A stretch of 64,000 nt of DNA. It comes from Escherichia coli (GTDB taxonomy: Bacteria; Pseudomonadota; Gammaproteobacteria; Enterobacterales; Enterobacteriaceae). Each line of letters begins with the position of its first letter. Within the stretch, counting starts at the first letter, position 1. The notes under the pieces were generated by a model. That model was not told the origin of the DNA and made no database searches. It saw only the letters and a program-made list of their open reading frames with translations. The stretch lies in NCBI GenBank assembly GCA_902500055.1, contig GCA_902500055.1_4131.1; one strand, 5' to 3'. Of this stretch, positions 36,541 through 56,316 are shown piece after piece. Position numbers and translations under genes: made by a program.

Positions 36541-36555
36541 TTTTATTCTTTTTTG

Positions 36556-36756
36556 TTAGATGATTCTCCAATCATCAACGATCATGGTAAGATACCGAAC
36601 CAGTGATTCGAGTGATTCGTGTTCTCGATAGTCTGCCGCACCGCCAGCGGTACAAGTACAGCCGATTAAGCCGTTTTGCAATTCCTTAATCTGTACATCG
36701 ATAAGGTTGGCTTTAGCTTCTTTCAGTACTTCAACCAGGGCGATAGCGATAGACAT
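36556..36756 (-). CDS. hypothetical protein
   Basis: 66 aa. Confidence 0.5.
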   Translation of the reverse strand: MSIAIALVEVLKEAKANLIDVQIKELQNGLIGCTCTAGGAADYREHESLESLVRYLTMIVDDWRII

Positions 36757-36778
36757 AATGTTTTACTCCAAACTATTG

Positions 36779-36839
36779 GCGGGAGAACTATTCCCCCGCT
36801 CTATGTAAAACATTATACATTACTGGTTAGTACTGTCAA
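36779..36839 (-). promoter_or_regulatory. conserved promoter plus 5' leader hairpin
   Basis: Minus sense TTGACA-N-TATAAT followed by GCGGGGGAA..TTCTCCCGC palindrome. Confidence 0.5.
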
Positions 36840-36846
36840 ATAGTTT

Positions 36847-37104
36847 TTATGAAATATCTTCGATGTAGTCGGCCCATTTCATTTTTTCAGTACTGTCAAG
36901 TGCAATCGGATTGCTAGGATCAAACCATTCACCATTCCCGCAATACATCCCCACGGCGACGGTTTTATATCCATCCTGGGCCGCACTCCACGACATTGCA
37001 CGATAGATATGGCCTTTAACTGGTTGCAGTACTGGTAACGTTTTATGGTCTTCTACGTAGGCCATAGCTTGAGGATTTACCCGATATTGTGTGAATTGAT
37101 CCAT
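36847..37104 (-). CDS. hypothetical protein
   Basis: 85 aa. Confidence 0.5.
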   Translation of the reverse strand: MDQFTQYRVNPQAMAYVEDHKTLPVLQPVKGHIYRAMSWSAAQDGYKTVAVGMYCGNGEWFDPSNPIALDSTEKMKWADYIEDIS

Positions 37105-37180
37105 TATGTTTCCCCTTGTAGTTAGTAAAGTTATTACATCAGTACTATCAAGCTATGTCAATAGTACTGAAATAAAACTT

Positions 37181-37405
37181 TTAGATTAGATTATTGAGGC
37201 CGTTGATGGTAGACTCGCTTTCTTCTTTCTCCCATTGGCGGTAGTACTTCCATGCTTCATGATATGTGGCGATTAGTTCATCTTTTTGATCCTGGTTACA
37301 TGCCAGTACTGAATCACGGTGAGCGGTGTTATAGATAGAATCGAATGATTTCTTCTCTTCTGCCAGGTTAGCTACTTCCCGCATCAGTTCATCAAAGTTA
37401 GCCAT
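37181..37405 (-). CDS. hypothetical protein
   Basis: 74 aa; AAAGGAG upstream. Confidence 0.55.
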   Translation of the reverse strand: MANFDELMREVANLAEEKKSFDSIYNTAHRDSVLACNQDQKDELIATYHEAWKYYRQWEKEESESTINGLNNLI

Positions 37406-37423
37406 TTTATTACTCCTTTTAGT

Positions 37424-37480
37424 GGGGGAGGATATCTCCCCCTATGCAAAACATTATACTTTGTTTTAGTTATTATGCAA
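37424..37480 (-). promoter_or_regulatory. conserved promoter plus 5' leader hairpin
   Basis: Minus sense TTGCAT-16 nt-TATAAT, then GGGGGAGATATCCTCCCCC palindrome. Confidence 0.5.
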
Positions 37481-37736
37481 GTACTTTTTTCATATAAACA
37501 TTAAATTCTACACCGCCGTAACCTTCCACGATGATATGTTTTGCGTTATCACGCTTGCACATAGTGAAACCGTTGTTGATATGTTCTGCATTTTCCAGGG
37601 ATACATCACCGATTGCAGCACATACGGCACTAATAACAGTATTCCGCAAAGTACTGGTATCATTAGCGGTCATAGTAGTTTGCAGTACTACGTTGTCGTA
37701 TACGTGTGCATTGATAGTGATTTCGATAGTGTTCAT
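37473..37736 (-). CDS. hypothetical protein
   Basis: Track ORF trimmed to Met19 (MNTIEITIN...); upstream part is leader hairpin read-through. Confidence 0.5.
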   Translation of the reverse strand: MNTIEITINAHVYDNVVLQTTMTANDTSTLRNTVISAVCAAIGDVSLENAEHINNGFTMCKRDNAKHIIVEGYGGVEFNVYMKKVLA

Positions 37737-37823
37737 GGTGTATCTCCTGGACTTGAGGGGAAACCATTTCCCCCTCTCGATATAAAACATTATACGTTAA
37801 TCTAACTACAATGCAAGTACTTT

Positions 37824-38015
37824 TTAAATTTTATTTCCGATATAGTCCGGCATGTTCTTTTCAGTCATACGCTTTGCTAATGTCTGCATATGGCTTATAG
37901 CGTTCAAGGTGTCTTCCTCCAGGGATGAATCAAGATAATCAGGATCATTCTTCACCTTGCAATGATTATGATAGCGTAGTACAGCCAGTACTTTTTTAAC
38001 TTCTTCAACTGTCAT
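37824..38015 (-). CDS. hypothetical protein
   Basis: 63 aa. Confidence 0.5.
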   Translation of the reverse strand: MTVEEVKKVLAVLRYHNHCKVKNDPDYLDSSLEEDTLNAISHMQTLAKRMTEKNMPDYIGNKI

Positions 38016-38284
38016 AATAAGTACCCCACTTCGTTAGCTTTCAGGTTAGTATCAATCATCAGTGGATTTTTGTAGTTCACAAAACGATTAGTTTTCTCGA
38101 TAGCGAATCCCATATAATCCAGCTTGCTTACAGTACATTCATTCTTAAAAACTTCTTTCGCTGTATCGATGGCTGATTGCATGGATAACCGCCCATCTAA
38201 ATTAATGTTTCCAAATGATCCACCAGCAGAAGTAGGATTACCGTTCATATCTTTAATGATCATAGTAGCGGAGTAGCTGGACAT
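38012..38284 (-). CDS. hypothetical protein
   Basis: 90 aa; ATGA-coupled to downstream gene. Confidence 0.5.
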   Translation of the reverse strand: MSSYSATMIIKDMNGNPTSAGGSFGNINLDGRLSMQSAIDTAKEVFKNECTVSKLDYMGFAIEKTNRFVNYKNPLMIDTNLKANEVGYLL

Positions 38285-38372
38285 AATTTTGTTTCCTTTT
38301 ATTGGTGGGGGAGAACTATTCTCCCCTTGATGTAAACTATTATACAGTACTGATATACTTTGTCAAATACTT

Positions 38373-38777
38373 TTATTCGCCCATATAGATTAAGTTATCA
38401 TCGCCTACATAGGGATCGCAAACGTTGATTTCTTCGCAGTACTTCGTGAATACATCGCCATAGTGACCTAAACCACGATCCCAAAAACCAGTTCCGTGAC
38501 CTTCGCGGGTAAGGAACAGATCATGACCAGCTTGCTCATAACCGTAATCAATAAACATACCGCGAACTACTTCCAGATCATTACCGTGTTTCTCAATGAA
38601 GCGAGAACATGCAATCACCGCCGCTTGACGTGCTTCATCAGATAACTCATAATCTTCCAGGTAATCGCCGTTATCATTATGTACAGTACTGAATTGCATA
38701 GCTTCAATGTAACCAGCGACCATTGCAGCATGATTTTTATCGTTGGCGATATTCCGAGCAAGATTAGTAGTAGTCAT
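38373..38777 (-). CDS. hypothetical protein
   Basis: 134 aa; motif REGHGTGFWDRG. Confidence 0.55.
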   Translation of the reverse strand: MTTTNLARNIANDKNHAAMVAGYIEAMQFSTVHNDNGDYLEDYELSDEARQAAVIACSRFIEKHGNDLEVVRGMFIDYGYEQAGHDLFLTREGHGTGFWDRGLGHYGDVFTKYCEEINVCDPYVGDDNLIYMGE

Positions 38778-38798
38778 GATTTTATTCCTTTTAGTATC

Positions 38799-38857
38799 GG
38801 GGAGAACTATTCTCCCCTTGATGTAAACTATTATACAGTACTAAGATACTTTGTCAA
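38799..38857 (-). promoter_or_regulatory. conserved promoter plus 5' leader hairpin (archetype)
   Basis: Minus sense TTGACA-16 nt (AGTACTG)-TATAAT, GTTTACATCAA, then GGGGAGAATAGTTCTCCCC, then AAAGGAA and ATG. Confidence 0.55.
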
Positions 38858-38861
38858 ATAC

Positions 38862-39083
38862 TTAATTACGTTTAAAATGATATGTACCTTTATCATCCTG
38901 TACGCCCCATACTGATTTACCATCAACACCAGTGAAGCCGGATTGTAATTCAATATGGAAACCATTATTATCAACTACAAAAACTTTTTTATTTTCATCC
39001 CGATAACATTGATATTCTGAATCAACATTAAAGGCCGCATCATTCAGACGATTGGAAGCGTAAATGCAAGTCATTGTAGTCAT
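38862..39083 (-). CDS. hypothetical protein
   Basis: Track ORF trimmed to Met12 (MTTMTCIY...). Confidence 0.5.
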   Translation of the reverse strand: MTTMTCIYASNRLNDAAFNVDSEYQCYRDENKKVFVVDNNGFHIELQSGFTGVDGKSVWGVQDDKGTYHFKRN

Positions 39084-39211
39084 GATTTTATTCCTTAATA
39101 TACCAGGGAGAACCATTTCCCCCTCTCGATATAAAACATTATACTTGATTCTAAGTACAATGCAAGTACTTTTTAAAAAATAGTTTTCAGTACTGAATAC
39201 TTATATAATAG

Positions 39212-39295
39212 ATACACTTCCGCACCCTATGGGTCAGTGAGTTATCTCTCAATGGATATATAATAGCAAAGGGACTGACCGGAGTCAATCCCTTT
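39212..39295 (+). repeat. conserved intergenic unit, copy 2
   Basis: GATACACTTCCGCACCCTATGGGTCAG ... AAAGGGACTGACCGGAGTCAATCCCTTTTTT. Confidence 0.6.
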
Positions 39296-39306
39296 TTTAA
39301 TCTTTT

Positions 39307-39891
39307 TTATCGTGTTACCTTACTTGCTGCCACATCACGCTTTTTATAGTACTGATTCCAGATATTGCAGGTTAAACCGTAATCAAGTACTTTAATAAGG
39401 CCATTACGATCCTGGCCGATATTCTGTTTTCTGATATCTCTTATCGTTAGTGTTGATAATGTATCATCGACGTGTTGTAGTGCATCAGCAAAGCGGTGCT
39501 GGCGTTCGATTGCATTACGTTTAATATTGTACTTTAATTCATTGCACGCGTTTACGTGCTTCACACTACCTTTGCTTGCAGTACTCAACCGATCCATAAC
39601 GATAAACATATTATCAGGATCGCATAAATGCATATGCACCTTTGCAAAGTACTGTTTCAACTGAGGGCGGTCATAGTCTAAAAAATTCCATACCTTACAT
39701 TCAGTTTCATTTTGTTCTACACCCGCATCACAATTCGCGACCTTAATCACTAACCGATCATTTAAAGCGAAAACTATACGGGAAGAACCAGCACCGATGA
39801 TCTCCAGGCCAGCTAACCGACAAGCTGAAAGGATCTCTTTGTTGGTTTCCATTTCTGACAGTGTACGGATGAATTTAGTATAATTACGCAT
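39307..39891 (-). CDS. Hanks-type (eukaryotic-like) Ser/Thr protein kinase-like protein
   Basis: Trimmed to Met20 after AAGGAG; Gly loop IGAGSSRIVF, Lys in VIKV, catalytic-loop-like RDIRKQN, DYG in place of DFG. Confidence 0.55.
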   Translation of the reverse strand: MRNYTKFIRTLSEMETNKEILSACRLAGLEIIGAGSSRIVFALNDRLVIKVANCDAGVEQNETECKVWNFLDYDRPQLKQYFAKVHMHLCDPDNMFIVMDRLSTASKGSVKHVNACNELKYNIKRNAIERQHRFADALQHVDDTLSTLTIRDIRKQNIGQDRNGLIKVLDYGLTCNIWNQYYKKRDVAASKVTR

Positions 39892-39922
39892 TGCATGTTC
39901 TCCTTGAGTTAATGAAACTATA

Positions 39923-40165
39923 TTACAGTACTTTACTATCAATGGCAACTACTTTTTTAACATTAACGGCGTGGATCACTTCCTTCGTGTTTTTAGTACT
40001 GAATACTTTCGCCGCTCCTTGTTCGACCGTGATACGATAGCGACCATTAACATCAACCATATTAATAAAGTCCGGCGTGCTGAATGGTGTTGTTTTACAT
40101 TTGAGTACTGTTAACAGTTCCACCAGCGATGTAGTTTCTTTGATACGTTTTTCTAAAGTAATCAT
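39923..40165 (-). CDS. hypothetical protein
   Basis: Track ORF trimmed to Met20 (MITLEKRIK...). Confidence 0.5.
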   Translation of the reverse strand: MITLEKRIKETTSLVELLTVLKCKTTPFSTPDFINMVDVNGRYRITVEQGAAKVFSTKNTKEVIHAVNVKKVVAIDSKVL

Positions 40166-40222
40166 TTTGTTTCCCCCGTGTTGGTATGTACATATAGTAC
40201 TAAAACATTTGAGTACTGTCAA

Positions 40223-40441
40223 TTAGATAATATTATATTTCTTTAAAGATAATGCGTCTTGGGTTGGCTGATACTCGATACCGTTCCCATTATTGACTTC
40301 AACTAATAAACCTTTGTCAATTAGTTTTTTAATAGTACGATACCCCTGTTGAAAATTGGTAAAATGTGAATCATTACGAAAGGTATAACCGTGCTTAACT
40401 GCTTCATCAATAGTTTTCTTTTCGATTTTAGATAATTTCAT
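40223..40441 (-). CDS. hypothetical small protein, possible DNA-binding
   Basis: Trimmed to Met20 (MKLSKIEKK...); shares leader sequence with the upstream gene. Confidence 0.45.
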   Translation of the reverse strand: MKLSKIEKKTIDEAVKHGYTFRNDSHFTNFQQGYRTIKKLIDKGLLVEVNNGNGIEYQPTQDALSLKKYNII

Positions 40442-40494
40442 TTTGTTTCTCCCGTGTTGGTATGTGTACATAATACTAAAACAATTGAGTACTG

Positions 40495-40749
40495 TCAACG
40501 TGATATTAGTTTTATTTTCTTATTATATTGTTGGTGTTCATATAGGTTTATTTTTCCTGTGTTCTCTATTACTATTCTGTTGTTAGTGTCCACATCGATT
40601 ACACGCAGTTTCCCGTTGCTTAACTTCCTTGGTAATAGGTTACCATTAATAAACTCATTAGCAAGCTGTACGGCCTTTGTGATGATTCTCTTCGGTGCTT
40701 TATAGTGTACCCGTAAGATGTTATCTTTATATAGTTGAACCTTAATCAT
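40495..40749 (-). CDS. hypothetical protein
   Basis: 84 aa. Confidence 0.5.
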   Translation of the reverse strand: MIKVQLYKDNILRVHYKAPKRIITKAVQLANEFINGNLLPRKLSNGKLRVIDVDTNNRIVIENTGKINLYEHQQYNKKIKLISR

Positions 40750-40810
40750 TTTGTTTGTCCTATAAAAAAGGCGGGATCAGTTCCCGCCGTGTTGTTAGTA
40801 CTGCAAGTTA

Positions 40811-41206
40811 TTAGATAACCTGGCGGCGTTTACTGTATACTGTTACACGATTACCCTTACGATCATGTCGGATCTCTTTCTGGTTGCGAATCAGTTCACT
40901 TGGACGCTTAAGGTTTGCCAGGTGATCCGCGTGAGTCCATGCGGTGTGGTTTACCTGTACTTTGATATCAGAATCAGCGATAAACTCATCTTGTGCGTCA
41001 AGTATTGCCGCCAGCATATCCGCTCGTTTTAGTTCTGCTGCTGTTAGTACTGGCTCAGGTGAATTCACAATATCAGAGATTTCTTTGAACTGTACGGCCC
41101 AGCGTTGACCTTTCGGTGCTGTCGTTCCCATGTCTTTAAATGCTGCTCCTTCCTCGCGTGCAACAATACGGGCAGCTTCACGGGTAGCGTAGAATTTAGT
41201 AATCAT
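40811..41206 (-). CDS. hypothetical protein, paralog of 52866..53132
   Basis: Start set to Met4 (MITKFYATREAARIV...) by alignment with MNIKYFATREQARIA; shared ...RKGNRVTVY tail. Confidence 0.55.
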   Translation of the reverse strand: MITKFYATREAARIVAREEGAAFKDMGTTAPKGQRWAVQFKEISDIVNSPEPVLTAAELKRADMLAAILDAQDEFIADSDIKVQVNHTAWTHADHLANLKRPSELIRNQKEIRHDRKGNRVTVYSKRRQVI

Positions 41207-41301
41207 GGTATACATCCTATTAGTTGAGTTAGTACTACAAGTTAGAGTCTATTATAAAGTACTATCTGGGCAATGTCAAATAGTACTTTAAATGGATTCT
41301 A

Positions 41302-41625
41302 TTACATGTCTTTCTTACGTTTTACATCGTAGTAGCGAACTGTTATTTCTTTGTTAATCTCTTTTTCGATGCGGTGAATAACTTTTTCTTTCGGGTTGAA
41401 ACCTATAACGGTTTCTTTAATGATCTCCAAACCAGTGTATTCGCCTTGCGTACCGTAACCGTATGTAAAGGTTTCGTGTCCCAGGTCTTCCCAGCGGTCG
41501 CCAATTAACGCAGACACGTAGCAAGAGTGGTAAGTATTGCCGTTCCGATCAGTCCAGCGATTAACTTTAATGTCAAAGGAGGTTACAATTTTCAATTCCA
41601 CTTTCTGGGTAAGGATCATAGCCAT
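41302..41625 (-). CDS. hypothetical protein, paralog of 47258..47602
   Basis: 107 aa; shared YGYG and C-terminal VKRKKD. Confidence 0.55.
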   Translation of the reverse strand: MAMILTQKVELKIVTSFDIKVNRWTDRNGNTYHSCYVSALIGDRWEDLGHETFTYGYGTQGEYTGLEIIKETVIGFNPKEKVIHRIEKEINKEITVRYYDVKRKKDM

Positions 41626-41712
41626 TTTTATTTCTCTCTCTTTGTTAGGAGGGGAACCATTTCCCCGCCTTGATGTAAACTATTATACAGTACTAAGATA
41701 CTTTGTCAATAC

Positions 41713-41988
41713 TTAAGTATTGTAAATGTCGTGAATAGTGATAAAGTTTTTACGCCCGTAAACCTGTAAATCGGTATTAATGTAATGCTTATCAAGTACA
41801 TCCTCGACGCTTAAAGCCGTGTCGTGAATATCTTCGTAGAATTGAGGATCTACAATCTTGCTTAAGTCATCCGGCGTTAACTTATCGTTAAGCCATTGAA
41901 CCGCCTGGATATCTGCATCACGTTTCCATTGTTCCAGGTTAGTAGTCAGTACTTGTTCGATTTCGTTAGCTGTCAGTAGAATCCGCAT
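41713..41988 (-). CDS. hypothetical protein
   Basis: 91 aa. Confidence 0.5.
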   Translation of the reverse strand: MRILLTANEIEQVLTTNLEQWKRDADIQAVQWLNDKLTPDDLSKIVDPQFYEDIHDTALSVEDVLDKHYINTDLQVYGRKNFITIHDIYNT

Positions 41989-42008
41989 TTTAATGTTTCC
42001 TTATCAGT

Positions 42009-42150
42009 GGTTGATGTAAGTATTATACTCGTTTACTTTCTATTGTCAAACTATTTTATCAGGGGAGTTTTTCGTATGTCTTACTCCTGGACTACTTAAC
42101 GGGGTTACTTGTTTCGTTCCCCGTCCTGATGTAAAACATTATACTTGATT
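42009..42150 (-). repeat. duplicated ~140-bp leader cassette, copy 1
   Basis: Near-identical to 52141..52282; contains two tandem promoters and hairpins CGGGGAACG..CCCCG and GGAGTAAG..CTCC. Confidence 0.55.
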
Positions 42151-42221
42151 CTAAGTACAATGCAAGTACTTTTTAAAAATAGTTTTCAGTACTTGATAGT
42201 ACTAGCCACCAGCAAACAATA

Positions 42222-42301
42222 GATACATTTATGCACCCGGTGGGCTAATTTGTTTCTATGCGTATATAATAGCAAAGGGACTGACCGGAGTCAATCCCTT
42301 T
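42222..42301 (+). repeat. conserved intergenic unit, copy 3
   Basis: GATACATTTATGCACCCGGTGGGCTAA ... AAAGGGACTGACCGGAGTCAATCCCTTTTT. Confidence 0.6.
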
Positions 42302-42312
42302 TTCAATTATTT

Positions 42313-42462
42313 TTAAACTTCTTTCGGGTTGCGATAGGTGATAGCGTTCGGGTACATTTGTTTAATGTTATTCCATGCCTGGTTAACATTATAACCACTT
42401 GAGCGAATCAGTTGGTTACTACCGACACCTTGAAACACTACTTCAAATAAGAATTCTTTCAT
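42313..42462 (-). CDS. small hypothetical protein (49 aa)
   Basis: Hand-translated MKEFLFEVVFQGVGSNQ...; ATGA-coupled to upstream gene. Confidence 0.35.
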   Translation of the reverse strand: MKEFLFEVVFQGVGSNQLIRSSGYNVNQAWNNIKQMYPNAITYRNPKEV

Positions 42463-42632
42463 GCTTTCACCTCGCTATCTGCTTTGCCTTTACGCCAGGC
42501 CGTTGCTAATTGTTCGCGTTGCCATAAGTCGAGTGATACGTAAAGTTTTGCATTATCACCCTTCGGATATTCGCCAGTAGTACCAATCCGATAAAACAGA
42601 TCTTTCAGTACTGTTAATTCTACCTGGACCAT
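42459..42632 (-). CDS. small hypothetical protein
   Basis: Track ORF trimmed to Met35 (MVQVELTVLKDLF...) downstream of the leader hairpin. Confidence 0.45.
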   Translation of the reverse strand: MVQVELTVLKDLFYRIGTTGEYPKGDNAKLYVSLDLWQREQLATAWRKGKADSEVKA

Positions 42633-42718
42633 TATACTTTCCTCTTTGTTAGGAGGGGAACTATTCCCCTTCCGATATAAAACATTATACACTTTATTCA
42701 GTACAGTGCAAGTACTTT

Positions 42719-42931
42719 TTAATCTTTCAGCCAATGATCCTGAATGAATTTTTCACCGAAACCTTGCTGCATTGATTGTAACAGACGTTCGCGATGAGCG
42801 GCGGCGAATTGCTCAGTACTATGCGTTACACCTGGTTGATATCTGGATTCACCATTGGGGGCGATGTATTGTACATCCCACGGTTTTTCGTTAGTATCAG
42901 ACCATTTACGAACGATTAGTTGACCTTGCAT
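42719..42931 (-). CDS. hypothetical protein
   Basis: 70 aa. Confidence 0.5.
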   Translation of the reverse strand: MQGQLIVRKWSDTNEKPWDVQYIAPNGESRYQPGVTHSTEQFAAAHRERLLQSMQQGFGEKFIQDHWLKD

Positions 42932-43017
42932 TTTTCTTTCCTCTTAGTGGGGAGAATCATTTTCTCCCCTTCATGTAACTTATTATACAGTACTATAATC
43001 TATTGTCCAGTACTTTT

Positions 43018-43206
43018 TTACAGTTTATGAATTAATTCTTTATCTAAGCGATAGCGTACATTATTAATGGTAACAGCATTATTTTTAATGCTACGCTGTA
43101 CGGGTCCACCAGCAATAACAAACGTTGCTTTATTGCCCCGAACAATGATAGCACTTCCAGGATTACCGAAATCATCTTGTACTAAAATACTTGATAAGTT
43201 TTCCAT
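43018..43206 (-). CDS. hypothetical protein
   Basis: 62 aa. Confidence 0.5.
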   Translation of the reverse strand: MENLSSILVQDDFGNPGSAIIVRGNKATFVIAGGPVQRSIKNNAVTINNVRYRLDKELIHKL

Positions 43207-43284
43207 TTTTATTTCCTCTTAGTAGGGGAAGATGTTTCCCCTTGATGCAAGTACTATAACAGTACTGAAAACTAAATGCAAGTA

Positions 43285-43641
43285 CTATGATAAAATCATG
43301 ATAGGATATTCACTATCTATCAATACCTCGAATCCGAAACCTTCGTACCATTCTTTAAGATTAAAGGCGTTATCTTCTCCCGTATCGCATTCTAAGATGA
43401 TACAATCTGAATCATCGGCGGCATCGATAAAGGCATTCATTAATTCGTTACCTTCACCATTGCCCCGACTATCAGGATCAACATAAAGAGAATCAATAAA
43501 CGCTACACGGTCATAATCAAGATCCGGTGCAATGATTCCACGTTTAACAAACCAGTACTGCAATTGTGCTACTTTGCCCTGTACCTGATAACCAGTGATC
43601 TCTCCATTGTCAGTAGTACGCGTGATATGTTGTATTCCCAT
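43285..43641 (-). CDS. GNAT-family N-acetyltransferase-like protein
   Basis: 118 aa; acetyl-CoA motif-A-like IDSLYVDPDSRGNGEGNELMNAFIDAA. Confidence 0.5.
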   Translation of the reverse strand: MGIQHITRTTDNGEITGYQVQGKVAQLQYWFVKRGIIAPDLDYDRVAFIDSLYVDPDSRGNGEGNELMNAFIDAADDSDCIILECDTGEDNAFNLKEWYEGFGFEVLIDSEYPIMILS

Positions 43642-43705
43642 GATTACTATCCTCAGTTAAGATATAAAACATTATACACTATCTTTCAGTACTGTCAATT
43701 ACTTT

Positions 43706-43963
43706 TTATCTCATAGATCTATGCCAACAATTACGCGGTTGACGTTTAAAAATACTATCATGATCCTCCTGGCAAGTTATGCAGTACTTACACCCCTTAA
43801 CGACCTGGCGGCGATTCTCAGGGATTTTATCGCCGCAGTCGAGGCAATGTATCAGTGATTCTATTTGTGCGTTAATTTGCGTTCTAGCGTGGTTAACAGC
43901 AGCCTGAATCACTGCGTTAATCTCGTCTTGTTCGGCCCCATCTTTCGCGAATCCTACAGCCAT
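43706..43963 (-). CDS. TraR/DksA-type C4 zinc-finger protein
   Basis: 85 aa; CLDCGDKIPENRRQVVKGCKYCITC (CxxC...CxxC). Confidence 0.5.
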   Translation of the reverse strand: MAVGFAKDGAEQDEINAVIQAAVNHARTQINAQIESLIHCLDCGDKIPENRRQVVKGCKYCITCQEDHDSIFKRQPRNCWHRSMR

Positions 43964-44164
43964 TATTTTAACCTCATTATAAAAATACTATAGTACTGTA
44001 ATGCGACAATAATATTACTTGTTCTTACTTTTTCCAATCCACATGATACCACATATTCATTACCATATGTGCGGAACGATACACCATGAAAATTTTTATA
44101 CACTTGCACTACTAATCATAACCTTTCGTCTAACCAACTGCATAGAATTATACTACTTTACGCA

Positions 44165-44205
44165 AATTGATCAAGTATTGATCAGATCATTTTTGATCAA
44201 TATTA
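44165..44205 (-). promoter_or_regulatory. cluster of TTGATCA palindromes (4 GATC sites in ~40 bp) in a leader
   Basis: AAATTGATCAAGTATTGATCAGATCATTTTTGATCAATATT. Confidence 0.4.
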
Positions 44206-44293
44206 TACAGTTACATTTGTGCACCCTATGGGTTAGTGACGTTCTCGTCTTGATGTAAGTATTATGCCAGTACTGGATGATATTGTCAATAGA

Positions 44294-44491
44294 TTATTTT
44301 AATTTTTTTCTGTCATTGATTAATGCTTTCAGTACTATACTAATGATTTGCAATGATTCATCAATGACTATAAAATTATTTTCTTTCATTAGATGATAGT
44401 TACCATTGATTGTATATTCTAAGGAGTACTGTTTACGTTTAATTTTTGATAATGTTTCTATTTGTTTTTGTACTGATTTCATGCTAATCAT
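44294..44491 (-). CDS. hypothetical protein
   Basis: 65 aa. Confidence 0.45.
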   Translation of the reverse strand: MISMKSVQKQIETLSKIKRKQYSLEYTINGNYHLMKENNFIVIDESLQIISIVLKALINDRKKLK

Positions 44492-44596
44492 TGGTAAACG
44501 TCCTGTAACGCATTCTAACGAGATAAACGGTTGAGTACTGGCATTGTATAGGGTAATGAATTAAAGCCCACCAGCGTTAACCAGTGGGCTATAATC

Positions 44597-44740
44597 TTAC
44601 ATCTTGCGGATAATCTTAACAGTATCTTTCACCGATTTACCGTTTTGCTGACATTGCTCGATCATCGCGTATTGTTCTGCGGTCAGATCCTCGCCAGTTT
44701 TTGCCAGTACTGCGTCGATGAATGAATCCAGTGCGATCAT
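44597..44740 (-). CDS. small hypothetical protein (47 aa)
   Basis: Hand-translated MIALDSFIDAVLAKTGEDLTAEQ...; promoter and leader upstream. Confidence 0.35.
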   Translation of the reverse strand: MIALDSFIDAVLAKTGEDLTAEQYAMIEQCQQNGKSVKDTVKIIRKM

Positions 44741-44832
44741 TTTGTTTCTCTCTCTTAGGTTAAGTTAACTACTGTTTATAAAACTTATTATACAGTACTA
44801 TCAAACGTTGTCAATAGTACTGGTAATATATT

Positions 44833-45045
44833 TTAATTGATGATGGTTAATGTAAAGTTATAATCCCCTGCCTGGTATAGTACTTTATCGCCGAACGTGC
44901 CGACACGTTTCATATTGCAATAGATACCCATAACACTTTTTACATCTTTGATATTCCGAACGCCCGTAATATCCTTGTTTAAATGATCGTGATCAGAAAA
45001 TAAAACTTGTTTTGCATTTTTCAGTACAGTGCAGATATTAGCCAT
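44833..45045 (-). CDS. hypothetical protein
   Basis: 70 aa. Confidence 0.5.
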   Translation of the reverse strand: MANICTVLKNAKQVLFSDHDHLNKDITGVRNIKDVKSVMGIYCNMKRVGTFGDKVLYQAGDYNFTLTIIN

Positions 45046-45141
45046 TTTGTTTTCTCTCTCTGTTAGTGGGGAGAAGTTTTTCTCCCCTTGATGTAAACTA
45101 TTATACAGTACTATAATCTATTGTCAAACTATTTTTTTATA

Positions 45142-45483
45142 TTATTCGAAATCTTCTGGACCGGACTGATAATCATCTTCACCGTATGCACTTTCTAACT
45201 TCTCGCCAGTGTGATCATCAGTTAGTGAATCATCCTCATAATTCACGTCTACGCCTACAATGTAAAACTGGCTATCGTCTGGATCATTGAAATTAATTTT
45301 CTGAATGTTTACAATAACTGTATTGATGCCCAGGACACAGCCATCAGCCGTTACAAAGTACTGATATTTTTCACAACCGCCTGAATTGAAACCGTAATTA
45401 ATTTCGGCCCGACCATCATTTAAACGCAGTGCCTGGGCGATGATTTCATTTTCAAAGTTAGATTGAGCAATTGAGATAGTCAT
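45142..45483 (-). CDS. hypothetical protein with acidic C-terminus
   Basis: 113 aa; C-terminal ...ESAYGEDDYQSGPEDFE. Confidence 0.5.
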   Translation of the reverse strand: MTISIAQSNFENEIIAQALRLNDGRAEINYGFNSGGCEKYQYFVTADGCVLGINTVIVNIQKINFNDPDDSQFYIVGVDVNYEDDSLTDDHTGEKLESAYGEDDYQSGPEDFE

Positions 45484-45606
45484 GATTTGTTTCCTTATTA
45501 CCAGGGGAAACCGTTTCCCCTTTCGATGTAAAACATTATACGCTTATTGAGATAGTTTGCAAGTACTTTTTAAAAATAGTTTTCAGTACTCAATACTTAT
45601 ATAATA

Positions 45607-45692
45607 GATACACTTATGCACCCGGTGGGCTAGTGAGCTATCTCTCAATGAATATATAATAGCAAAATGGCTGACCGAAGTCAACCACTTTT
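45607..45692 (+). repeat. conserved intergenic unit, copy 4 (degenerate hairpin)
   Basis: GATACACTTATGCACCCGGTGGGCTAGTGAG ... AAAATGGCTGACCGAAGTCAACCACTTTTTT. Confidence 0.55.
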
Positions 45693-45697
45693 TTCAT

Positions 45698-45832
45698 TTA
45701 TTTTTTAGCTTTCAGTACTGCCGCCTTTCGCGTCATGCCTTGCTTAATGTACTCCTTTACTTTCGCTTTACGTGCTTTCGCTTTATCTGCTTTCGTTTTA
45801 GGAGTACTGTAAATTAAACCGTTAGGATTCAT
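45698..45832 (-). CDS. small basic protein (44 aa)
   Basis: Hand-translated MNPNGLIYSTPKTKADKAKARKAK...; TAAATG junction with upstream peptide. Confidence 0.35.
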   Translation of the reverse strand: MNPNGLIYSTPKTKADKAKARKAKVKEYIKQGMTRKAAVLKAKK

Positions 45833-45922
45833 TTAAATCACCATAAAGAATAGATAGGTTACTAACAATGCCGCGATCAATGCACCGATCACCGCTGAAC
45901 TGTAATAAGCTAATGATTTCAT
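45833..45922 (-). CDS. small hydrophobic peptide (29 aa), probable single TM helix
   Basis: Hand-translated MKSLAYYSSAVIGALIAALLVTYLFFMVI; ATGA-coupled to upstream gene. Confidence 0.35.
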   Translation of the reverse strand: MKSLAYYSSAVIGALIAALLVTYLFFMVI

Positions 45923-46071
45923 TTTTTAGCCTGAAAATAATGTTTAATTTGAGCGGCGGTCAGTGCACAATTACGCAGGAAGTTTTCTGTATAACTTTTG
46001 CGAGTACTGAAAGAGAATTGACCTTTGCCGTTACCGATAGTAACATCAAACCGAGCGTTGTATTGTTTCAT
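45919..46071 (-). CDS. small hypothetical protein (50 aa)
   Basis: Track ORF trimmed to Met11 (MKQYNARFDVTIGNGKGQ...). Confidence 0.4.
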   Translation of the reverse strand: MKQYNARFDVTIGNGKGQFSFSTRKSYTENFLRNCALTAAQIKHYFQAKK

Positions 46072-46152
46072 TTTGTTTCTCCTGTTATTGGGGAGAATCA
46101 TTTCTCCCCTTCATGTAAACTATTATACAGTACTAAAAACTAATTGCAAGTA

Positions 46153-46299
46153 CTATTTTTTAGATTTACGCAAACTTTCTACCATCTCAGGAGTAAGGCC
46201 CGGCGGGTAGGAAACTACTTCATCAACGAAACGTAAAGGGAATACCCCAGCGAAAGGTGAACGTGCTTTCTTAGTATTACTCTTTTTTGATGCTTTCAT
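46153..46299 (-). CDS. small basic protein (48 aa)
   Basis: Hand-translated MKASKKSNTKKARSPFAGVF...; leader hairpin GGGGAGAATCATTTCTCCCC upstream. Confidence 0.4.
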   Translation of the reverse strand: MKASKKSNTKKARSPFAGVFPLRFVDEVVSYPPGLTPEMVESLRKSKK

Positions 46300-46368
46300 T
46301 TCATATTCCTTAATTAGTGGGGAGAATCATTTCTCCCCTTCATGTAAAACATTATACGCGTTTAAAAA

Positions 46369-46578
46369 CTAATTGCAAGTACTATTTGAAAGTAAATGCT
46401 CATACGCTGCATTAACTACGTTTTCAATAACCGACTGTACAGAAAGATCCCCCACGTCCTGGCTATAGTAGAAATCGCTTACAGTGGTGTCATCGTATGC
46501 AAATACTTTACCAGGTACGGCATCAATCACATACATATTAACCTTTAAGATGTCGATCTTATCCTGTACAGTAAGCAT
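46369..46578 (-). CDS. hypothetical protein
   Basis: 69 aa. Confidence 0.5.
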   Translation of the reverse strand: MLTVQDKIDILKVNMYVIDAVPGKVFAYDDTTVSDFYYSQDVGDLSVQSVIENVVNAAYEHLLSNSTCN

Positions 46579-46583
46579 ATTAA

Positions 46584-46856
46584 TTAACCTTTTAAGTACT
46601 GGCTTAAGTAGTCTTGTTGATCTTCGGTGATTGCAGCCATCTTCCCTAGTACTGGATTGATGATATAATCCCCTGTAACGTCCTGTAACGCATTCTCAGG
46701 CGGTTTAACGGCTGGGGTAGCCATAGCCATTGCCTGGACTTGTTCGACGCTGTAACGCTCATATAGGCGGCATTCTTCCGGTGTTAACATAGCATCAGTA
46801 CGCTTCATCGGTTTAATGATGCTTTCGATCTCATTCAGTACTTGATTAACGTTCAT
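46584..46856 (-). CDS. hypothetical protein
   Basis: 90 aa. Confidence 0.5.
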   Translation of the reverse strand: MNVNQVLNEIESIIKPMKRTDAMLTPEECRLYERYSVEQVQAMAMATPAVKPPENALQDVTGDYIINPVLGKMAAITEDQQDYLSQYLKG

Positions 46857-46907
46857 GGTATAATCCCCAATATAAGCGGCCTGAATCGACCGCTAACGAT
46901 GTTTTGA

Positions 46908-47177
46908 TTAATAGGTGTATGGTTGACGCTCAAACAATGATTGCACGTTGTACGCCCCGCTTATGGGCTTCGCTGGTAAATCAATTTTATATTGTTCACG
47001 CTTAAAGATAATAAAACGGCAATTGTTTTTAACATCAAAATTGATTGAACGTTCCAGGAGTTTACCATCGTGCACAAATACAAGATAACCGCTTGGTACT
47101 TGTTTTGTAGTACTGGTTGCAACCATAGACCGCCGAACATGTGTACCTGCATCGATTAAAGTACTGATATTTTTCAT
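46908..47177 (-). CDS. hypothetical protein
   Basis: 89 aa. Confidence 0.5.
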   Translation of the reverse strand: MKNISTLIDAGTHVRRSMVATSTTKQVPSGYLVFVHDGKLLERSINFDVKNNCRFIIFKREQYKIDLPAKPISGAYNVQSLFERQPYTY

Positions 47178-47257
47178 TATACGATCCTCTTAAGTTAATT
47201 TAATTTCTTTCCCCTATGCAGACACTATATCAAAGTATCTGCATAAAGTAAAGCTAA

Positions 47258-47602
47258 TTAAAGATCTTTTTTGCGTTTAACATCAGTTACCGAACTGTAA
47301 ACAGTGATATTATTGTCACGGCAAAAACGGGAAAGATAAGAACCGCGTAAAAACTCTTTATCTTCCATATTAATAACCTTGCTAAATTCTTCCATTGCTA
47401 CAGTGTCAAAGTGATCCCCGTATCCATATTGGAACGGCACGTTTACTACTTCAATAAAATTACCATCAATTTCTACGTCTACACTTAAAGAGAAATAAGT
47501 GTTACCATATGAAGCCTGGAACCAACGCCGAGCGGCAATATGTACAACTTCAACAGAAGACAGGTTGATATTTTGTTTTGCGATAGTGTTGATATTAGCC
47601 AT
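47258..47602 (-). CDS. hypothetical protein, paralog of 41302..41625
   Basis: 114 aa; shared YGYG and VKRKKD tail. Confidence 0.55.
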   Translation of the reverse strand: MANINTIAKQNINLSSVEVVHIAARRWFQASYGNTYFSLSVDVEIDGNFIEVVNVPFQYGYGDHFDTVAMEEFSKVINMEDKEFLRGSYLSRFCRDNNITVYSSVTDVKRKKDL

Positions 47603-47683
47603 TTTAATTTCCTCTTAGTTGTCTTGATAAAATCTATTATGCCAGTACTATCAAACTATGTCAATAGTACTGTGATAATATTT

Positions 47684-47896
47684 TTACTTACTTTCTTTCG
47701 CTGCTTTGTGCGTTGCCACTGCCATAACCACATCAGCACGAACAAAGTTTTTTACCGTGTCAGTGTAGTAATTGATTGCATCGTCAACATCTGTAAAAAT
47801 CCGATACATGCCGCACCACGATACTTTATAACCTTCTTTCACTTCTTCCAGCTTAACCAGTGATTTGTTTACTTTGATTTTTGTGATGATAGCCAT
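47684..47896 (-). CDS. hypothetical protein
   Basis: 70 aa; promoter TTGACA-17-CATAAT upstream, duplicated at 47620 and 47920. Confidence 0.5.
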   Translation of the reverse strand: MAIITKIKVNKSLVKLEEVKEGYKVSWCGMYRIFTDVDDAINYYTDTVKNFVRADVVMAVATHKAAKESK

Positions 47897-47980
47897 TATT
47901 GTTTCCTCTTAGTTGTCTTGATAAAATCTATTATGCCAGTACTATCAAACTATGTCAATAGTACTGTGATAATATTTTTA

Positions 47981-48121
47981 CTTACTTTTTGCTTTCTTTG
48001 CTGCTTCCACCTGGTCGGCCCACTCTTTACCCCATACCTGAGCGTTATAGTGATACTGACAAAGAGCAACGCCCCGCTTTAAACCAGTAATAGATTTCTG
48101 ACCACATTGACAAGTTTTCAT
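47981..48121 (-). CDS. small Cys-containing protein (46 aa), possible zinc ribbon
   Basis: Hand-translated MKTCQCGQKSITGLKRGVALCQYHY...; leader hairpin upstream. Confidence 0.35.
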
Positions 48122-48207
48122 TTTAGTTTCCTTGTAGTGGGGAGAACCATTTTCTCCCCTTGATGTAATGTATTATACTTTATTCGATTTACTTTGCAAG
48201 TACTTTT

Positions 48208-48435
48208 TTAATTTAATTCATCAAGGCAAAGGATACGCTCAACGCCCAAATCAGTTAAACTAATCGACGGCACTTGATAGGTTTCAATGTATGCTACACT
48301 TGCCCACTGACCGAACTCATTAACGGCCCAGGTATTCATTGCATTTTGCAATTCCGCACCTTCCTTGTTGGTAATGACTGCAACTACTTGTTCGTTGCCA
48401 GTAGTACCAGATACGCGAGTAATGATAATAGCCAT
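48208..48435 (-). CDS. hypothetical protein
   Basis: Track ORF trimmed to Met20 (MAIIITRVSG...). Confidence 0.5.
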   Translation of the reverse strand: MAIIITRVSGTTGNEQVVAVITNKEGAELQNAMNTWAVNEFGQWASVAYIETYQVPSISLTDLGVERILCLDELN

Positions 48436-48549
48436 TGTTTTGATTCCTTTGATTTGGAAGGAGAACCGTTTCCCCCTCTCGATGTAAAACATTATACGCT
48501 AATCTCTTAATCGTGCAAGTACTTTTTATTACTTTTTGCAAAATACTTT

Positions 48550-48650
48550 AAACGCACTCAATCGCATTCTAACGACTTTAACGCCACCAGCTAGGGCAAT
48601 GCATCAGATAAACAGTTTAATACGTTAGAATCGTTTCTAGGCGGTGCTGG
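48550..48650 (-). other. interleaved inverted repeats (A-B-A'-B')
   Basis: CGCATTCTAACG ... GCCACCAGC ... CGTTAGAATCG ... GCTGGTGGC. Confidence 0.4.
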
Positions 48651-48672
48651 TGGCCTGGTAAACGATAAACAC

Positions 48673-48698
48673 AAAAAAGCCCACTGTATAAGTGGGCT
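48673..48698 (-). terminator. intrinsic terminator after 48720..49202
   Basis: Hairpin AGCCCACTTATACAGTGGGCT followed by T-run on minus sense. Confidence 0.55.
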
Positions 48699-48719
48699 AA
48701 TGATTCAGTACTTTAATTG

Positions 48720-49202
48720 TTATGCTTCAACTTTGCGATGAGCTTCGATCCATTCCTCGCGAGTCATACCACTGGAGTTAATCGCATCCAGTACTACCGC
48801 AATGCAGTTACCACGCACCGGAATCAGATATTCTTCCCCGTTATCAAGTACTACCGCTACACGTTCTTGAATCCATTTTTTAGCTTTTACTTCTGGCTTA
48901 TCTTCACCGTACTTTTTCGCCAGGGCTTTTTGTGCCATCTCTGTAACTACTTCCAGATCCAATCCAACTACTGCCGCCTGAATACTTTCAATTGTTGCTT
49001 GTAGTTCTGCTTCACGGGCCGCCTTTGCCGCTTCAATTTCTGCCGCTTTATTTGCTTGTAGTTCTTTCGCAGTACTGTAAGCGATGTTAAAATTATTGCG
49101 TACCGCTTTCATGGTATCGTTATCCAGTTCAGCCAGGATCTCAGCCGCGACGTTAGTTTCATTTGCTACCAGTGCTTTGATGAATGATTTTACATTAGCC
49201 AT
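48720..49202 (-). CDS. Ala/Glu-rich coiled-coil protein, hypothetical
   Basis: Trimmed to Met6 (MANVKSF...) after GAGGA; central KAAEIEAAKAAREAELQATIESIQAA. Confidence 0.5.
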   Translation of the reverse strand: MANVKSFIKALVANETNVAAEILAELDNDTMKAVRNNFNIAYSTAKELQANKAAEIEAAKAAREAELQATIESIQAAVVGLDLEVVTEMAQKALAKKYGEDKPEVKAKKWIQERVAVVLDNGEEYLIPVRGNCIAVVLDAINSSGMTREEWIEAHRKVEA

Positions 49203-49408
49203 TTTATAAATCCTCAATTAAAGTTTAGTTTACGTTTATTAGTGTATCAAAGTTTTCTCGACGTGTCCAGTTTTTCGTTCGACTTACTGGCGGTCTACTT
49301 AGTGCTCCCCGTCTTGATGTAATACATTCTACGCTTTTCTGCGGTAATGTCAACTACTTTCTTAAAACTATTTTCAAAGTATCTCAGTACTACGATACTA
49401 CAAAAACA

Positions 49409-49430
49409 AAAAAAGCCCACCAGGTGGGCT
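49409..49430 (-). terminator. intrinsic terminator after 49437..49667
   Basis: Hairpin AGCCCACCTGGTGGGCT followed by T-run on minus sense. Confidence 0.5.
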
Positions 49431-49436
49431 ATGTAC

Positions 49437-49667
49437 TTAATCAGTGAGTAAAATATTAAACACTTTACCATTTAACGTTATTGGTGCACTGCTACCAGGC
49501 TCAAGATCCGTTAATATACCTGCAATCGCTTTATCATTGGCGACCTTTCCAGTGTCCAACAGTACTACAGTACTGATAAGATTAACGCTCGTTTCAATAT
49601 CATAATGCACGGCGTTAAGTAGTTGTGTAGTACTGCTTTCGTTAAGTAAAACAATTCGCTTAGTCAT
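49437..49667 (-). CDS. hypothetical protein
   Basis: 76 aa. Confidence 0.5.
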   Translation of the reverse strand: MTKRIVLLNESSTTQLLNAVHYDIETSVNLISTVVLLDTGKVANDKAIAGILTDLEPGSSAPITLNGKVFNILLTD

Positions 49668-49688
49668 GATGTTACCCCGTAGTATCTA

Positions 49689-49988
49689 TCAACGGCAATT
49701 AATAACGCCGGTATGCGTTACTTTCTCAGTATCCATTACAGTGACCGAACCGCGTTTAGTACTGGCATCATAATAAATTGTCGTGCTACCGTTTTCGTCT
49801 TCTTCATGGAACGGGCCGTTTTTAAATGCTTCCGGCTGAATCTCCAGATCCTTTAATACAATCTCGCCAGTACTTTCATCGGTCATTGCAACAGTGCACT
49901 GAATGAATTTTTCACTACTTACATCTAATGACGCATTAACAGCGAAAGAGGAAACAGATAAAGCCAGGGCGATGATTGTAATTTTCAT
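49689..49988 (-). CDS. secreted or periplasmic small protein
   Basis: 99 aa; N-terminal signal peptide MKITIIALALSVSSFAVNA with AxA-type cleavage site. Confidence 0.5.
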   Translation of the reverse strand: MKITIIALALSVSSFAVNASLDVSSEKFIQCTVAMTDESTGEIVLKDLEIQPEAFKNGPFHEEDENGSTTIYYDASTKRGSVTVMDTEKVTHTGVINCR

Positions 49989-50072
49989 TTGATTATCCTT
50001 AGTTACCAGGGGGAACCGCTCCCCCTTGCGATGTAAAATATTATACAGTACTAAAAACTATTATCAAGTACT

Positions 50073-50309
50073 TTATGATTTTTTATAAAACATTTCAGCA
50101 GTGATATTTTTACCCGTTGGCTGTACTTTATCCAGAATTTTTTGATGCCCTGGTCGTCCAAAGGAATATGATCCGTAAACAGTAAACCAGTAGTTGCCAT
50201 CAGTGTTTACATGTACAGCACAATAGGGTACGCCCCGCGATTCATCACTAGTAAAGTGTGCTACCGTTCCCGTTACATTCGAAGTCGTTGATTTGATTTG
50301 TTCAAGCAT
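50073..50309 (-). CDS. hypothetical protein
   Basis: 78 aa. Confidence 0.5.
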   Translation of the reverse strand: MLEQIKSTTSNVTGTVAHFTSDESRGVPYCAVHVNTDGNYWFTVYGSYSFGRPGHQKILDKVQPTGKNITAEMFYKKS

Positions 50310-50418
50310 TTTATTATTCCTTAGTTACCAGGGGGAACCGCTCCCCCTATGCAAAACATTATACGCGTTTAAAAACTAATTGCAAGTATTTTAATAAAAA
50401 GTATTTGAAAAATAGTTG

Positions 50419-50447
50419 TTGACAAGTGCATCCAGTACTGGCATAAT
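50419..50447 (+). promoter_or_regulatory. plus-strand sigma70-like promoter, divergent from early genes
   Basis: TTGACA-17 nt (CCAGTACTG)-CATAAT on the plus strand. Confidence 0.45.
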
Positions 50448-50448
50448 T

Positions 50449-50562
50449 ACTACATCAAGACGAAACAGTCACTAACCCACCGGGTGCCGAGATCCGTCTA
50501 TTAAATGATTCAGTACTGAAAAAGTAACGGGGAGTTATTATCTCCCCGCGTTGTTATTTTGT
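50449..50562 (+). ncRNA. candidate short plus-strand transcript
   Basis: Runs from the promoter at 50419 to hairpin CGGGGAGTTATTATCTCCCCG plus T-rich tract; contains CCCACCGGGTGC box; no ORF. Confidence 0.25.
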
Positions 50563-50775: not shown

Positions 50776-50863
50776 TTTATTTTCCTCATTACCAGGGAGA
50801 ACCATTTCTCCCTTTGATGTAAACCATTATACAGTACTGAAAACTAATTGCAAGTACTTTTTT

Positions 50864-56315: not shown

Positions 56316-56316
56316 A

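Follow-up and report, generated by a model that had tools for sequence, protein, structure and literature searches.

The question raised by this locus is whether two small adjacent genes of a jumbo coliphage, one encoding a GNAT-type acetyltransferase and the other a TraR/DksA-type zinc-finger protein, act together in the takeover of host transcription. Both genes lie on the minus strand of a 64,000-nucleotide stretch of DNA (the window), which was deposited as Escherichia coli (assembly GCA_902500055.1, contig GCA_902500055.1_4131.1). The approximately 2.6 kb around the two genes are about 94% identical to Asteriusvirus genomes, and the window is that of an Asteriusvirus, a jumbo coliphage of the 121Q/PBECO4 type, with genomes of about 350 kb. 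A preliminary description of this DNA gave both open reading frames (ORFs) at exactly the coordinates found here, without a strand, and based its family assignments on a motif-A-like SRGNGEG segment in one and a CxxC...CxxC pattern typical of TraR/DksA proteins in the other. Both families were assigned correctly, and public records had them already; Asteriusvirus genomes label the pair (e.g., genes 295 and 294 of 121Q are "GNAT family N-acetyltransferase" and "DksA-like zinc-finger protein"). The further proposal, a host-transcription takeover module, is not supported, given that the GNAT gene has its own promoter, that phages PBECO4, SF1-1 and 05F01 split the pair and that none of 35 other loci carries both families within approximately 3-5 kb.

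The two genes are separate, independently shuffled cassettes and not a conserved two-gene module. The best overall explanation, to which we assign a probability of about 0.6, is that two unrelated early-gene cassettes, separately transcribed and mobile, occupy the hyperplastic terminal-repeat region of this phage. The zinc-finger protein, a member of the TraR/YbiI branch, would most likely enter the secondary channel of the host RNA polymerase (RNAP) with its N-terminal helix, and the consensus promoters of the phage, with their A+T-rich discriminators, would be spared. The 118-aa minimal GNAT protein, with a complete acetyl-CoA site and no N-terminal substrate-binding arm, would most likely modify basic host proteins by acetylation of amino groups, in the manner of the small acidic protein AcrVA5. 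Adjacency of the genes would then reflect promoter-mediated cassette shuffling rather than functional coupling.

Separate promoters, occurrence and junctions

Each of the two genes is preceded by a Shine-Dalgarno sequence (SD), and the 64-bp gap between them holds the GNAT gene's own promoter, which matches the consensus at all 12 positions. For the zinc-finger gene, the 11/12 promoter-like site further upstream is the likelier driver, with transcription passing through a doubtful 48-aa ORF. A promoter directly 5' of the zinc-finger ATG was rejected because its TATAAT lies too near the SD and a -35 element is missing; the two upstream sites listed in the table are better candidates. Against fully separate transcription, no terminator was predicted between the two genes, and read-through co-transcription is therefore possible.

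The occurrence of the genes in other phages shows that they are separable. PBECO4 has kept the zinc-finger gene (92.9% identity) and lacks the GNAT gene. Shigella phage SF1-1 (146 kb) carries the GNAT gene at 96% amino acid identity and Klebsiella phage 05F01 (Stephanstirmvirinae) carries it at 47% identity; neither of these two phages, of 146-147 kb, has a zinc-finger gene within 3-4 kb. About 34 phage records contain the zinc-finger gene at 80% identity or more, compared to 24 with the GNAT gene. Searches with hidden Markov models (HMMs) of both families in flanks of approximately 3-5 kb, also at relaxed thresholds, found the GNAT family at none of 20 further viral zinc-finger loci and the zinc finger at none of 15 further GNAT-family loci; the latter are a sample from outside the 121Q type, and the GNAT-related loci were gathered with 6 close members. 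Pairing of the two genes is thus confined to a subset of Asteriusvirus.

The junctions lie inside promoters. The single intergenic region found in PBECO4 is chimeric, with a 5' half that corresponds to the GNAT promoter up to the -35/GTACT and a 3' half that equals the promoter region of the next gene from the -10 through the hairpin to the SD, so that the junction falls inside the promoter spacers. In SF1-1, the conserved block consists of the -10, the 5' untranslated region (5' UTR), the ORF and about 20 nt, and a "GNAT-type" promoter copy is found downstream instead. These junctions therefore indicate that the GNAT gene travels as a cassette with promoters at its boundaries, through recombination of one promoter motif with another.

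Promoters and the position of the genes in relatives suggest that the pair is probably among the first genes expressed. In the window, tightly packed minus-strand genes (1-29 kb) are followed by an array of small minus-strand genes (approximately 29-59 kb) and by plus-strand genes from 60 kb on. Twelve perfect TTGACA-N16/17-TATAAT sites were found in the window (0.15 expected), all on the minus strand and between 36.8 and 55.3 kb; most of the early-promoter spacers are 16 bp rather than 17 bp long. In phage fEgEco12, both genes are located at 11.5-12.2 kb, within a direct terminal repeat of 20,993 bp that is experimentally supported (PMC13070987); the genome paper mentions neither gene nor the promoters. 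In vB_Ec-M-J, the terminal repeat is annotated across both genes, and several records contain two copies. The pre-early genes of T5 offer an analogy for such first expression. As the two genes are likely among the first expressed, their position would fit a general host-takeover role for each of them separately.

The zinc-finger protein and RNA polymerase

The zinc-finger protein matches PF01258 (zf-dskA_traR) with 43.9 bits (cut-off 24.9; E 2e-11) and phrog_54, "DksA-like zinc-finger protein". Its ribbon, CxxC-N17-CxxC, is formed by C40, C43, C61 and C64, which are invariant in 46 homologues. The best solved relative is YbiI (PDB 2kgo, E 9e-12 over residues 1-69), followed by RNAP-bound TraR (5w1s/6n57, E 4e-6). 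The AlphaFold2 (AF2) model, built with the 46 homologues, has a mean predicted local distance difference test score (pLDDT) of 76 and contains a helix (residues 5-28), the zinc ribbon, two short helices (49-54 and 62-68) and a tail. The N-terminal helix (pLDDT approximately 80) has a TraR-like length, compared to residues 2-27 in TraR (PMC6970531). When this model was searched with Foldseek, the sole matches with E values of at most 0.001 were YbiI and TraR in the RNAP complex (template modeling scores 0.47-0.56). Moreover, I47-P48-E49-N50-R51-R52 matches the TraR rim-helix/Si3 contacts P45, E46, R48 and R49, the roles of which have been described previously (PMC6970531, PMC9239242); among the homologues, I47, P48, R51 and R52 are invariant and E49 is conserved in at least 90%.

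T4-like phages, among them Moon, VR26 and MHG19, carry the nearest homologues (65-72% identity), and remoter ones are found in Slopekvirus and Yoloswagvirus. Pairwise ratios of non-synonymous to synonymous substitution rates (dN/dS) for the zinc-finger gene range from 0.09 to 0.35; the relatives used for dN/dS were 121Q, fEgEco12, SHEFM2K, phAPEC6, TH47, PBECO4 and SF1-1. As judged from substitution patterns here and in the GNAT gene, both are real genes under purifying selection. The RefSeq record of PBECO4 (NC_027364.1) leaves the intact 85-aa TraR/YbiI-like ORF unannotated (92.9% identity; positions 2760..3014 of locus L003).

When the protein is compared to the features that define functional TraR homologues (PMC9239242, PMC6970531), several points weigh against a TraR-like activity. 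The top NCBIfam model, YbiI (NF008243), scores 79.2 bits, which is below its cut-off of 96 bits, and TIGR02419 (C4_traR_proteo) scores 51.5 bits compared to a cut-off of 59.7 bits. The DxxDxA tip motif, which has been described as critical in both TraR and lambda Orf73, is absent when the zinc-finger protein is aligned with these two. The sequence at its tip, M-A-V-G-F-A-K-D8-G-A-E11-Q-D13, carries three inserted residues compared to TraR and retains only the acid equivalent to TraR D6; D13 is replaced by L in many homologues, and residues 1-5 were modeled with low confidence (pLDDT below 50). Furthermore, the C-terminal helix, which spans residues 58-73 in TraR and contacts the beta-lobe/Si1, was modeled only at residues 62-68 and is followed by a low-confidence basic tail. 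DksA-family proteins without the tip motif and C-terminal helix have been reported to be inactive (PMC9239242).

These features could indicate that the protein is not a secondary-channel regulator at all, and that the YbiI-type clade shares only the C4 ribbon with TraR and DksA and has another role, such as nucleic-acid or metal binding. We regard this as possible but doubtful. The function of YbiI is unproven and a link to iron metabolism has been suggested (PMC2613031); in addition, the basic Cys/His/Trp tail RNCWHRSMR is conserved and has no counterpart in TraR. However, the likeness to TraR exceeds the ribbon, as it includes the N-terminal helix of TraR length and the I-P-E-x-R-R contacts, and an acid equivalent to TraR D6 is retained (D8/D9). 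The tip, near-invariant in the YbiI clade as M-A-[VS]-G-[FW]-A-x-D with the 3-residue insertion, is the most conserved part of the clade, as expected of a factor that inserts into the channel, and P2 Orf82 and Gp34 still worked despite imperfect motifs (PMC9239242). The only functional statement found in the YbiI literature is a remark, with data not shown, that YbiI rescued dksA auxotrophy at high expression (PMC2613031). Binding in the RNAP secondary channel consequently appears to be the most likely function of the zinc-finger protein, and our confidence in it is only moderate because of the reported inactivity of family members without the tip motif and C-terminal helix.

The full C-terminal tail, FKRxPRNCWHRSMR, is basic, clade-specific and invariant in the homologues. 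Residues 60-85 (43706..43783) alone match a separate family, phrog_25948 (E 2e-12), and the tail also matches short stretches in the T4-like phages HX01 and 308Ecol101PP with 73-77% identity, which could represent gene remnants or an independently used tail peptide.

TraR-style reprogramming has so far been shown only for the F plasmid and temperate-phage homologues. If the zinc-finger protein does bind RNAP, such reprogramming would extend to strictly lytic jumbo and T4-like phages, and the protein would offer mechanistic work a naturally occurring variant of the motif at the active-site tip.

The minimal acetyltransferase and its substrate

The GNAT protein contains the segment S58-R-G-N-G-E-G64, in which R59-x-x-G62-x-G64 is an exact motif A (Q/R-x-x-G-x-G/A, the acetyl-CoA pyrophosphate loop), and a motif-B tyrosine (W98-Y99). 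It scores above the Pfam gathering cut-offs of Acetyltransf_1 (PF00583; 37.2 bits compared to 20.7, E 4e-9), Acetyltransf_7 (PF13508; 33.5 compared to 27) and Acetyltransf_10 (PF13673; 26.3 compared to 23.6), and matches phrog_1249, "acetyltransferase". In 52 relatives, R59, G62, G64 and Y99 are invariant or at least 90% conserved; G17, Y18, L83, D86, E89, F93, L95, W98, F104, P113 and M115 are also conserved. A word-indexed search yielded 2 homologues from the sequence alone and, when the family profile was used, 8. The family became visible only when 1.8 billion representative proteins were scanned in full with HMMER, which gave about 290 relatives, mostly of 117-140 aa and aligning end to end. 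No dedicated Pfam entry exists for this short family, which is unnamed, mostly phage-borne and acidic (median isoelectric point 4.4).

The Pfam alignment begins at profile position 53 and runs to the last position, 116, so that only the C-terminal half of the profile is represented. In the AF2 model (pLDDT 94), a beta-hairpin (residues 3-21) and a helix (25-33) precede a complete core fold, beta4-alpha3-beta5-alpha4-beta6-beta7. The canonical N-terminal beta1-alpha1-alpha2 arm is thus missing from both the profile match and the model, and the protein is a minimal variant, as is AcrVA5. Structure prediction recovered the folds expected from the preliminary description for both proteins.

Pairwise dN/dS values for the GNAT gene are 0-0.08, and the protein is 100% identical in 18 records. 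A very recent sweep was rejected as the sole cause of this identity, as pairs differ by 4-27 synonymous compared to 0-6.5 non-synonymous differences. Since synonymous differences have accrued while non-synonymous ones have remained this few, the gene is under purifying selection.

By analogy with AcrVA5, the GNAT protein is most likely a host-protein acetyltransferase that modifies lysines or N-termini. A serious alternative is that its substrate is a small basic molecule, for which polyamines, aminoglycoside-like antibiotics, derivatives of amino acids or nucleotides, and defence signalling molecules are candidates; the enzyme would then serve in detoxification, metabolic reprogramming or signal quenching. 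The top structural neighbours, which are uncharacterised or act on small molecules, weigh against protein acetylation. Nevertheless, we consider the small-molecule alternative rather unlikely. The N-terminal arm that usually builds small-molecule pockets is missing; AcrVA5, the only characterised enzyme of the minimal architecture, is a protein lysine acetyltransferase (10.1101/2021.11.16.468554); many neighbours are N-terminal protein acetyltransferases (such as RimI, Naa50 and Naa30); and the domain is fused into architectures that resemble polyvalent proteins, with ART and ParB_N domains.

The fusions place the mini-GNAT domain at the end of large proteins of 262-984 aa (P0063, P0115 and P0075), together with PARP-like ART and ParB_N, Amidoligase_2 or DUF5661 domains, and recall the injected polyvalent proteins discussed previously (PMC7824862). 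In phage CMSTMSU (MH494197.1, 120963..121313), the GNAT homologue was recovered in three tblastn pieces and is annotated as an 80-aa fragment; this gene is probably disrupted or affected by a sequencing error. In a PADLOC search, neither the GNAT nor the zinc-finger protein matched a defence system.

Should the mini-GNAT prove to acetylate host proteins, AcrVA5 would be joined by a second characterised minimal acetyltransferase that serves as a phage effector; sister phages that naturally carry or lack the gene exist (e.g., 121Q and PBECO4). A broader proposal, which we offer only tentatively, is that the 118-aa protein represents a widespread unnamed family of phage mini-GNAT effectors with AcrVA5 architecture. 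In this view, small, acidic lysine or N-terminal acetyltransferases of low specificity would be expressed from the first-entering DNA and would put a host protein that acts in defence or binds DNA out of action by removing the charge of its basic residues; as cassettes with promoters at their boundaries, their genes would pass from one phage family to another. The YbiI-type clade of lytic phages would, in parallel, be a form of TraR in which the active-site tip differs.

The functional pair, in which the TraR-like protein docks on RNAP and the adjacent GNAT protein acetylates RNAP or the zinc-finger protein (e.g., at its N-terminal Ala2), is very improbable: adjacency on one strand, the absence of a predicted terminator, the presumed early region, the start M-A-V of the zinc-finger protein, the weak best NCBIfam match of the GNAT protein to RimI, an N-terminal alanine acetyltransferase (E 4e-4), the indirect inactivation of host RNAP by the phage GNAT Rac of LUZ19 (PMC7552054) and jumbo-phage GNATs predicted to modify RNAP (PMC7824862) would fit it, but it is opposed by the GNAT gene's own consensus promoter and the junctions within promoters, the split pairs and unpaired loci described above, the zinc-finger homologues of T4-like phages, Slopekvirus and Yoloswagvirus without a nearby GNAT gene, the fragmented gene of CMSTMSU and the lack of specific kinship between the GNAT protein and Rac. 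The main practical value of the two-cassette explanation is that it corrects the module interpretation and documents promoter-bounded cassette shuffling in a jumbo-phage terminal repeat. The novelty is modest, and consists of the AcrVA5-like minimal architecture and unnamed family of the GNAT protein, the non-canonical tip and tail of the lytic-phage YbiI-type clade, and cassette junctions at the level of promoters.

Surrounding features and comparison with known systems

Features of the locus, with positions in the window.
Feature	Position	Strand	Remarks
Mini-GNAT acetyltransferase coding sequence	43285..43641	minus	118 aa; isoelectric point 4.05; motif A R59-G-N-G62-E-G64; motif-B tyrosine Y99
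SD of the GNAT gene	43650..43654	minus	GAGGA, 8 nt 5' of the ATG; read from the sequence
Promoter of the GNAT gene	43671..43698	minus	TTGACA-16-TATAAT, 12/12 consensus; A+T-rich discriminator GTTTTAT; -35 half survives in PBECO4
C4 zinc-finger coding sequence, TraR/YbiI clade of the DksA family	43706..43963	minus	85 aa; N-terminal helix; C40xxC43...C61xxC64; I47-P-E-N-R51-R52; basic tail FKRxPRNCWHRSMR
Uncertain 48-aa ORF	43963..44109	minus	GTG start; stop overlaps the zinc-finger ATG by 1 nt (TAATG)
Promoter-like site	44261..44289	minus	TTGACA-17-CATAAT, 11/12, TG before the -10; likeliest driver of a transcript with the 48-aa ORF and the zinc-finger gene (inferred assignment)
Weaker promoter-like site	44147..44174	minus	Candidate for the zinc-finger gene
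Downstream boundary of the GNAT cassette	43207..43284	minus	Promoter (-35-like TTGCAT, -10-like TATAGT), hairpin and SD of the next gene; 3' half joined to the GNAT-promoter -35 in PBECO4
5' UTR hairpin of the next gene	43225..43241	minus	GGGGAA-N5-TTCCCC; within 43207..43284
Gene downstream of the GNAT cassette	43018..43206	minus	Its promoter, hairpin and SD lie in 43207..43284

The coding status of the 48-aa ORF is uncertain. It is annotated in 121Q, PBECO4 and fEgEco12 and missing from phAPEC6, with only about 60% identity between phage subgroups and a dN/dS of 0.3-0.4. An extra cassette with a 107-aa gene is found in fEgEco12 (locus L011, 2117..2440) and PBECO4 (locus L003, 2136..2459), between the homologues of 42719..42931 and 43018..43206. 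The window, 121Q and SHEFM2K lack this cassette, which represents another gain or loss of a single unit.

Many of the early-promoter cassettes (36391..55287, minus strand) share the consensus TTGACA-N16-TATAAT-AGTTTACATCAA-GGGGAGAA-N4-TTCTCCCC-ACTAAGAGGAAA-ATG, in which the promoter is followed by AGTTTACATCAA, a 5' UTR G+C hairpin (GGGGAGAA..TTCTCCCC) and the SD; their discriminators are A+T-rich. The palindrome AGTACT occurs 272 times in the window, compared to about 22 occurrences expected from base composition, and is densest at 36000..60000. Its usual place is the promoter spacer (…AGTACTG-TATAAT or TTGACA-GTACTG), and one intergenic region often holds several copies. The palindrome could serve as an operator for some regulator, or it may just belong to the promoter cassette that is shuffled.

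Further from the locus, positions 1..29100 contain 56 tightly packed minus-strand ORFs, each encoding 100-230 aa, whose stops and starts overlap, including clusters of 8 and 5 paralogues; five ORFs sampled from this region had no Pfam matches. On the plus strand, divergent from the early array, 60309..61304 encodes a Kelch-repeat beta-propeller protein and 62499..63644 an RCC1-like repeat protein. A scan of the whole window against Rfam gave zero matches, and no tRNAs were found in the window.

Compared to known systems, the zinc-finger protein shares with YbiI, TraR and lambda Orf73 the Pfam domain, the C4 ribbon, a single N-terminal helix of TraR length, the I-P-E-x-R-R segment, a small size (here 85 aa) and an origin in mobile elements; the N-terminus M-A-x-G-[FW]-A-x-D is common to it and YbiI. 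It differs from the TraR group in that DxxDxA is missing, only the D6-equivalent acid is retained, following a 3-residue insertion, and the C-terminal helix is short, and from YbiI in its tail (YNRRGSKDSQLR in YbiI, FKRxPRNCWHRSMR in the clade described here). In addition, the TraR group has so far been studied in temperate phages, whereas the gene described here occurs in strictly lytic jumbo and T4-like phages.

The GNAT protein has the minimal architecture and the isoelectric point of 4.05 in common with the anti-CRISPR protein AcrVA5 (PDB 6iuf, 92 aa). To our knowledge, E. coli does not normally carry Cas12a, and the target of the phage GNAT protein must therefore differ from that of AcrVA5. 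AcrVA5 acetylates a key lysine of Cas12a; in extracts of E. coli it also acetylates many proteins where the sequence context is basic, and CobB reverses this (10.1101/2021.11.16.468554). Sequence identity between AcrVA5 and the phage GNAT protein is only 20-22%, and approximately residues 22-44 of the latter form an additional helix and loop. AcrVA5 was not among the PDB profile matches listed for the GNAT protein at E values of at most 0.01, and an hhalign comparison of the family profile with AcrVA5 gave a probability of 74% (E 2.8e-5) over 65 columns of the generic GNAT core, a weak sign of specific kinship, which counts against the AcrVA5-like reading. The likeness to AcrVA5 is therefore architectural and not proven family membership.

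Rac of LUZ19 is also a phage-encoded GNAT protein for host takeover and provides a precedent for the idea of the preliminary description (PMC7552054). Unlike the mini-GNAT, Rac is a full-length GNAT protein of 157 aa, adjoins the phage RNAP and structural genes and acts in a different host. The label "Rac-like" was rejected, as hhalign gave a probability of only 3.6% for the family profile compared to LUZ19 gp28 (Rac).

At the level of gene organization, the closest parallel is provided by the promoter-early stem-loop (PeSL) cassettes of T4-type phages, which are mobile regulatory cassettes (PMC2839356, PMC4122927). Both systems consist of small non-essential ORFs, each located after a strong sigma-70 promoter and often a G+C stem-loop, with indel junctions inside promoter motifs and transfer between phages. 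The differences are that the cassettes described here reside in a jumbo-phage terminal repeat, that their motif is TTGACA-N16-TATAAT-AGTTTACATCAA-GGGGAGAA..TTCTCCCC with AGTACT in the spacer and that the GNAT promoter itself has no hairpin. Judged by the promoters that flank the small ORFs and by the junctions within the promoter motif, the arrangement of the cassettes described here matches PeSL-type shuffling.

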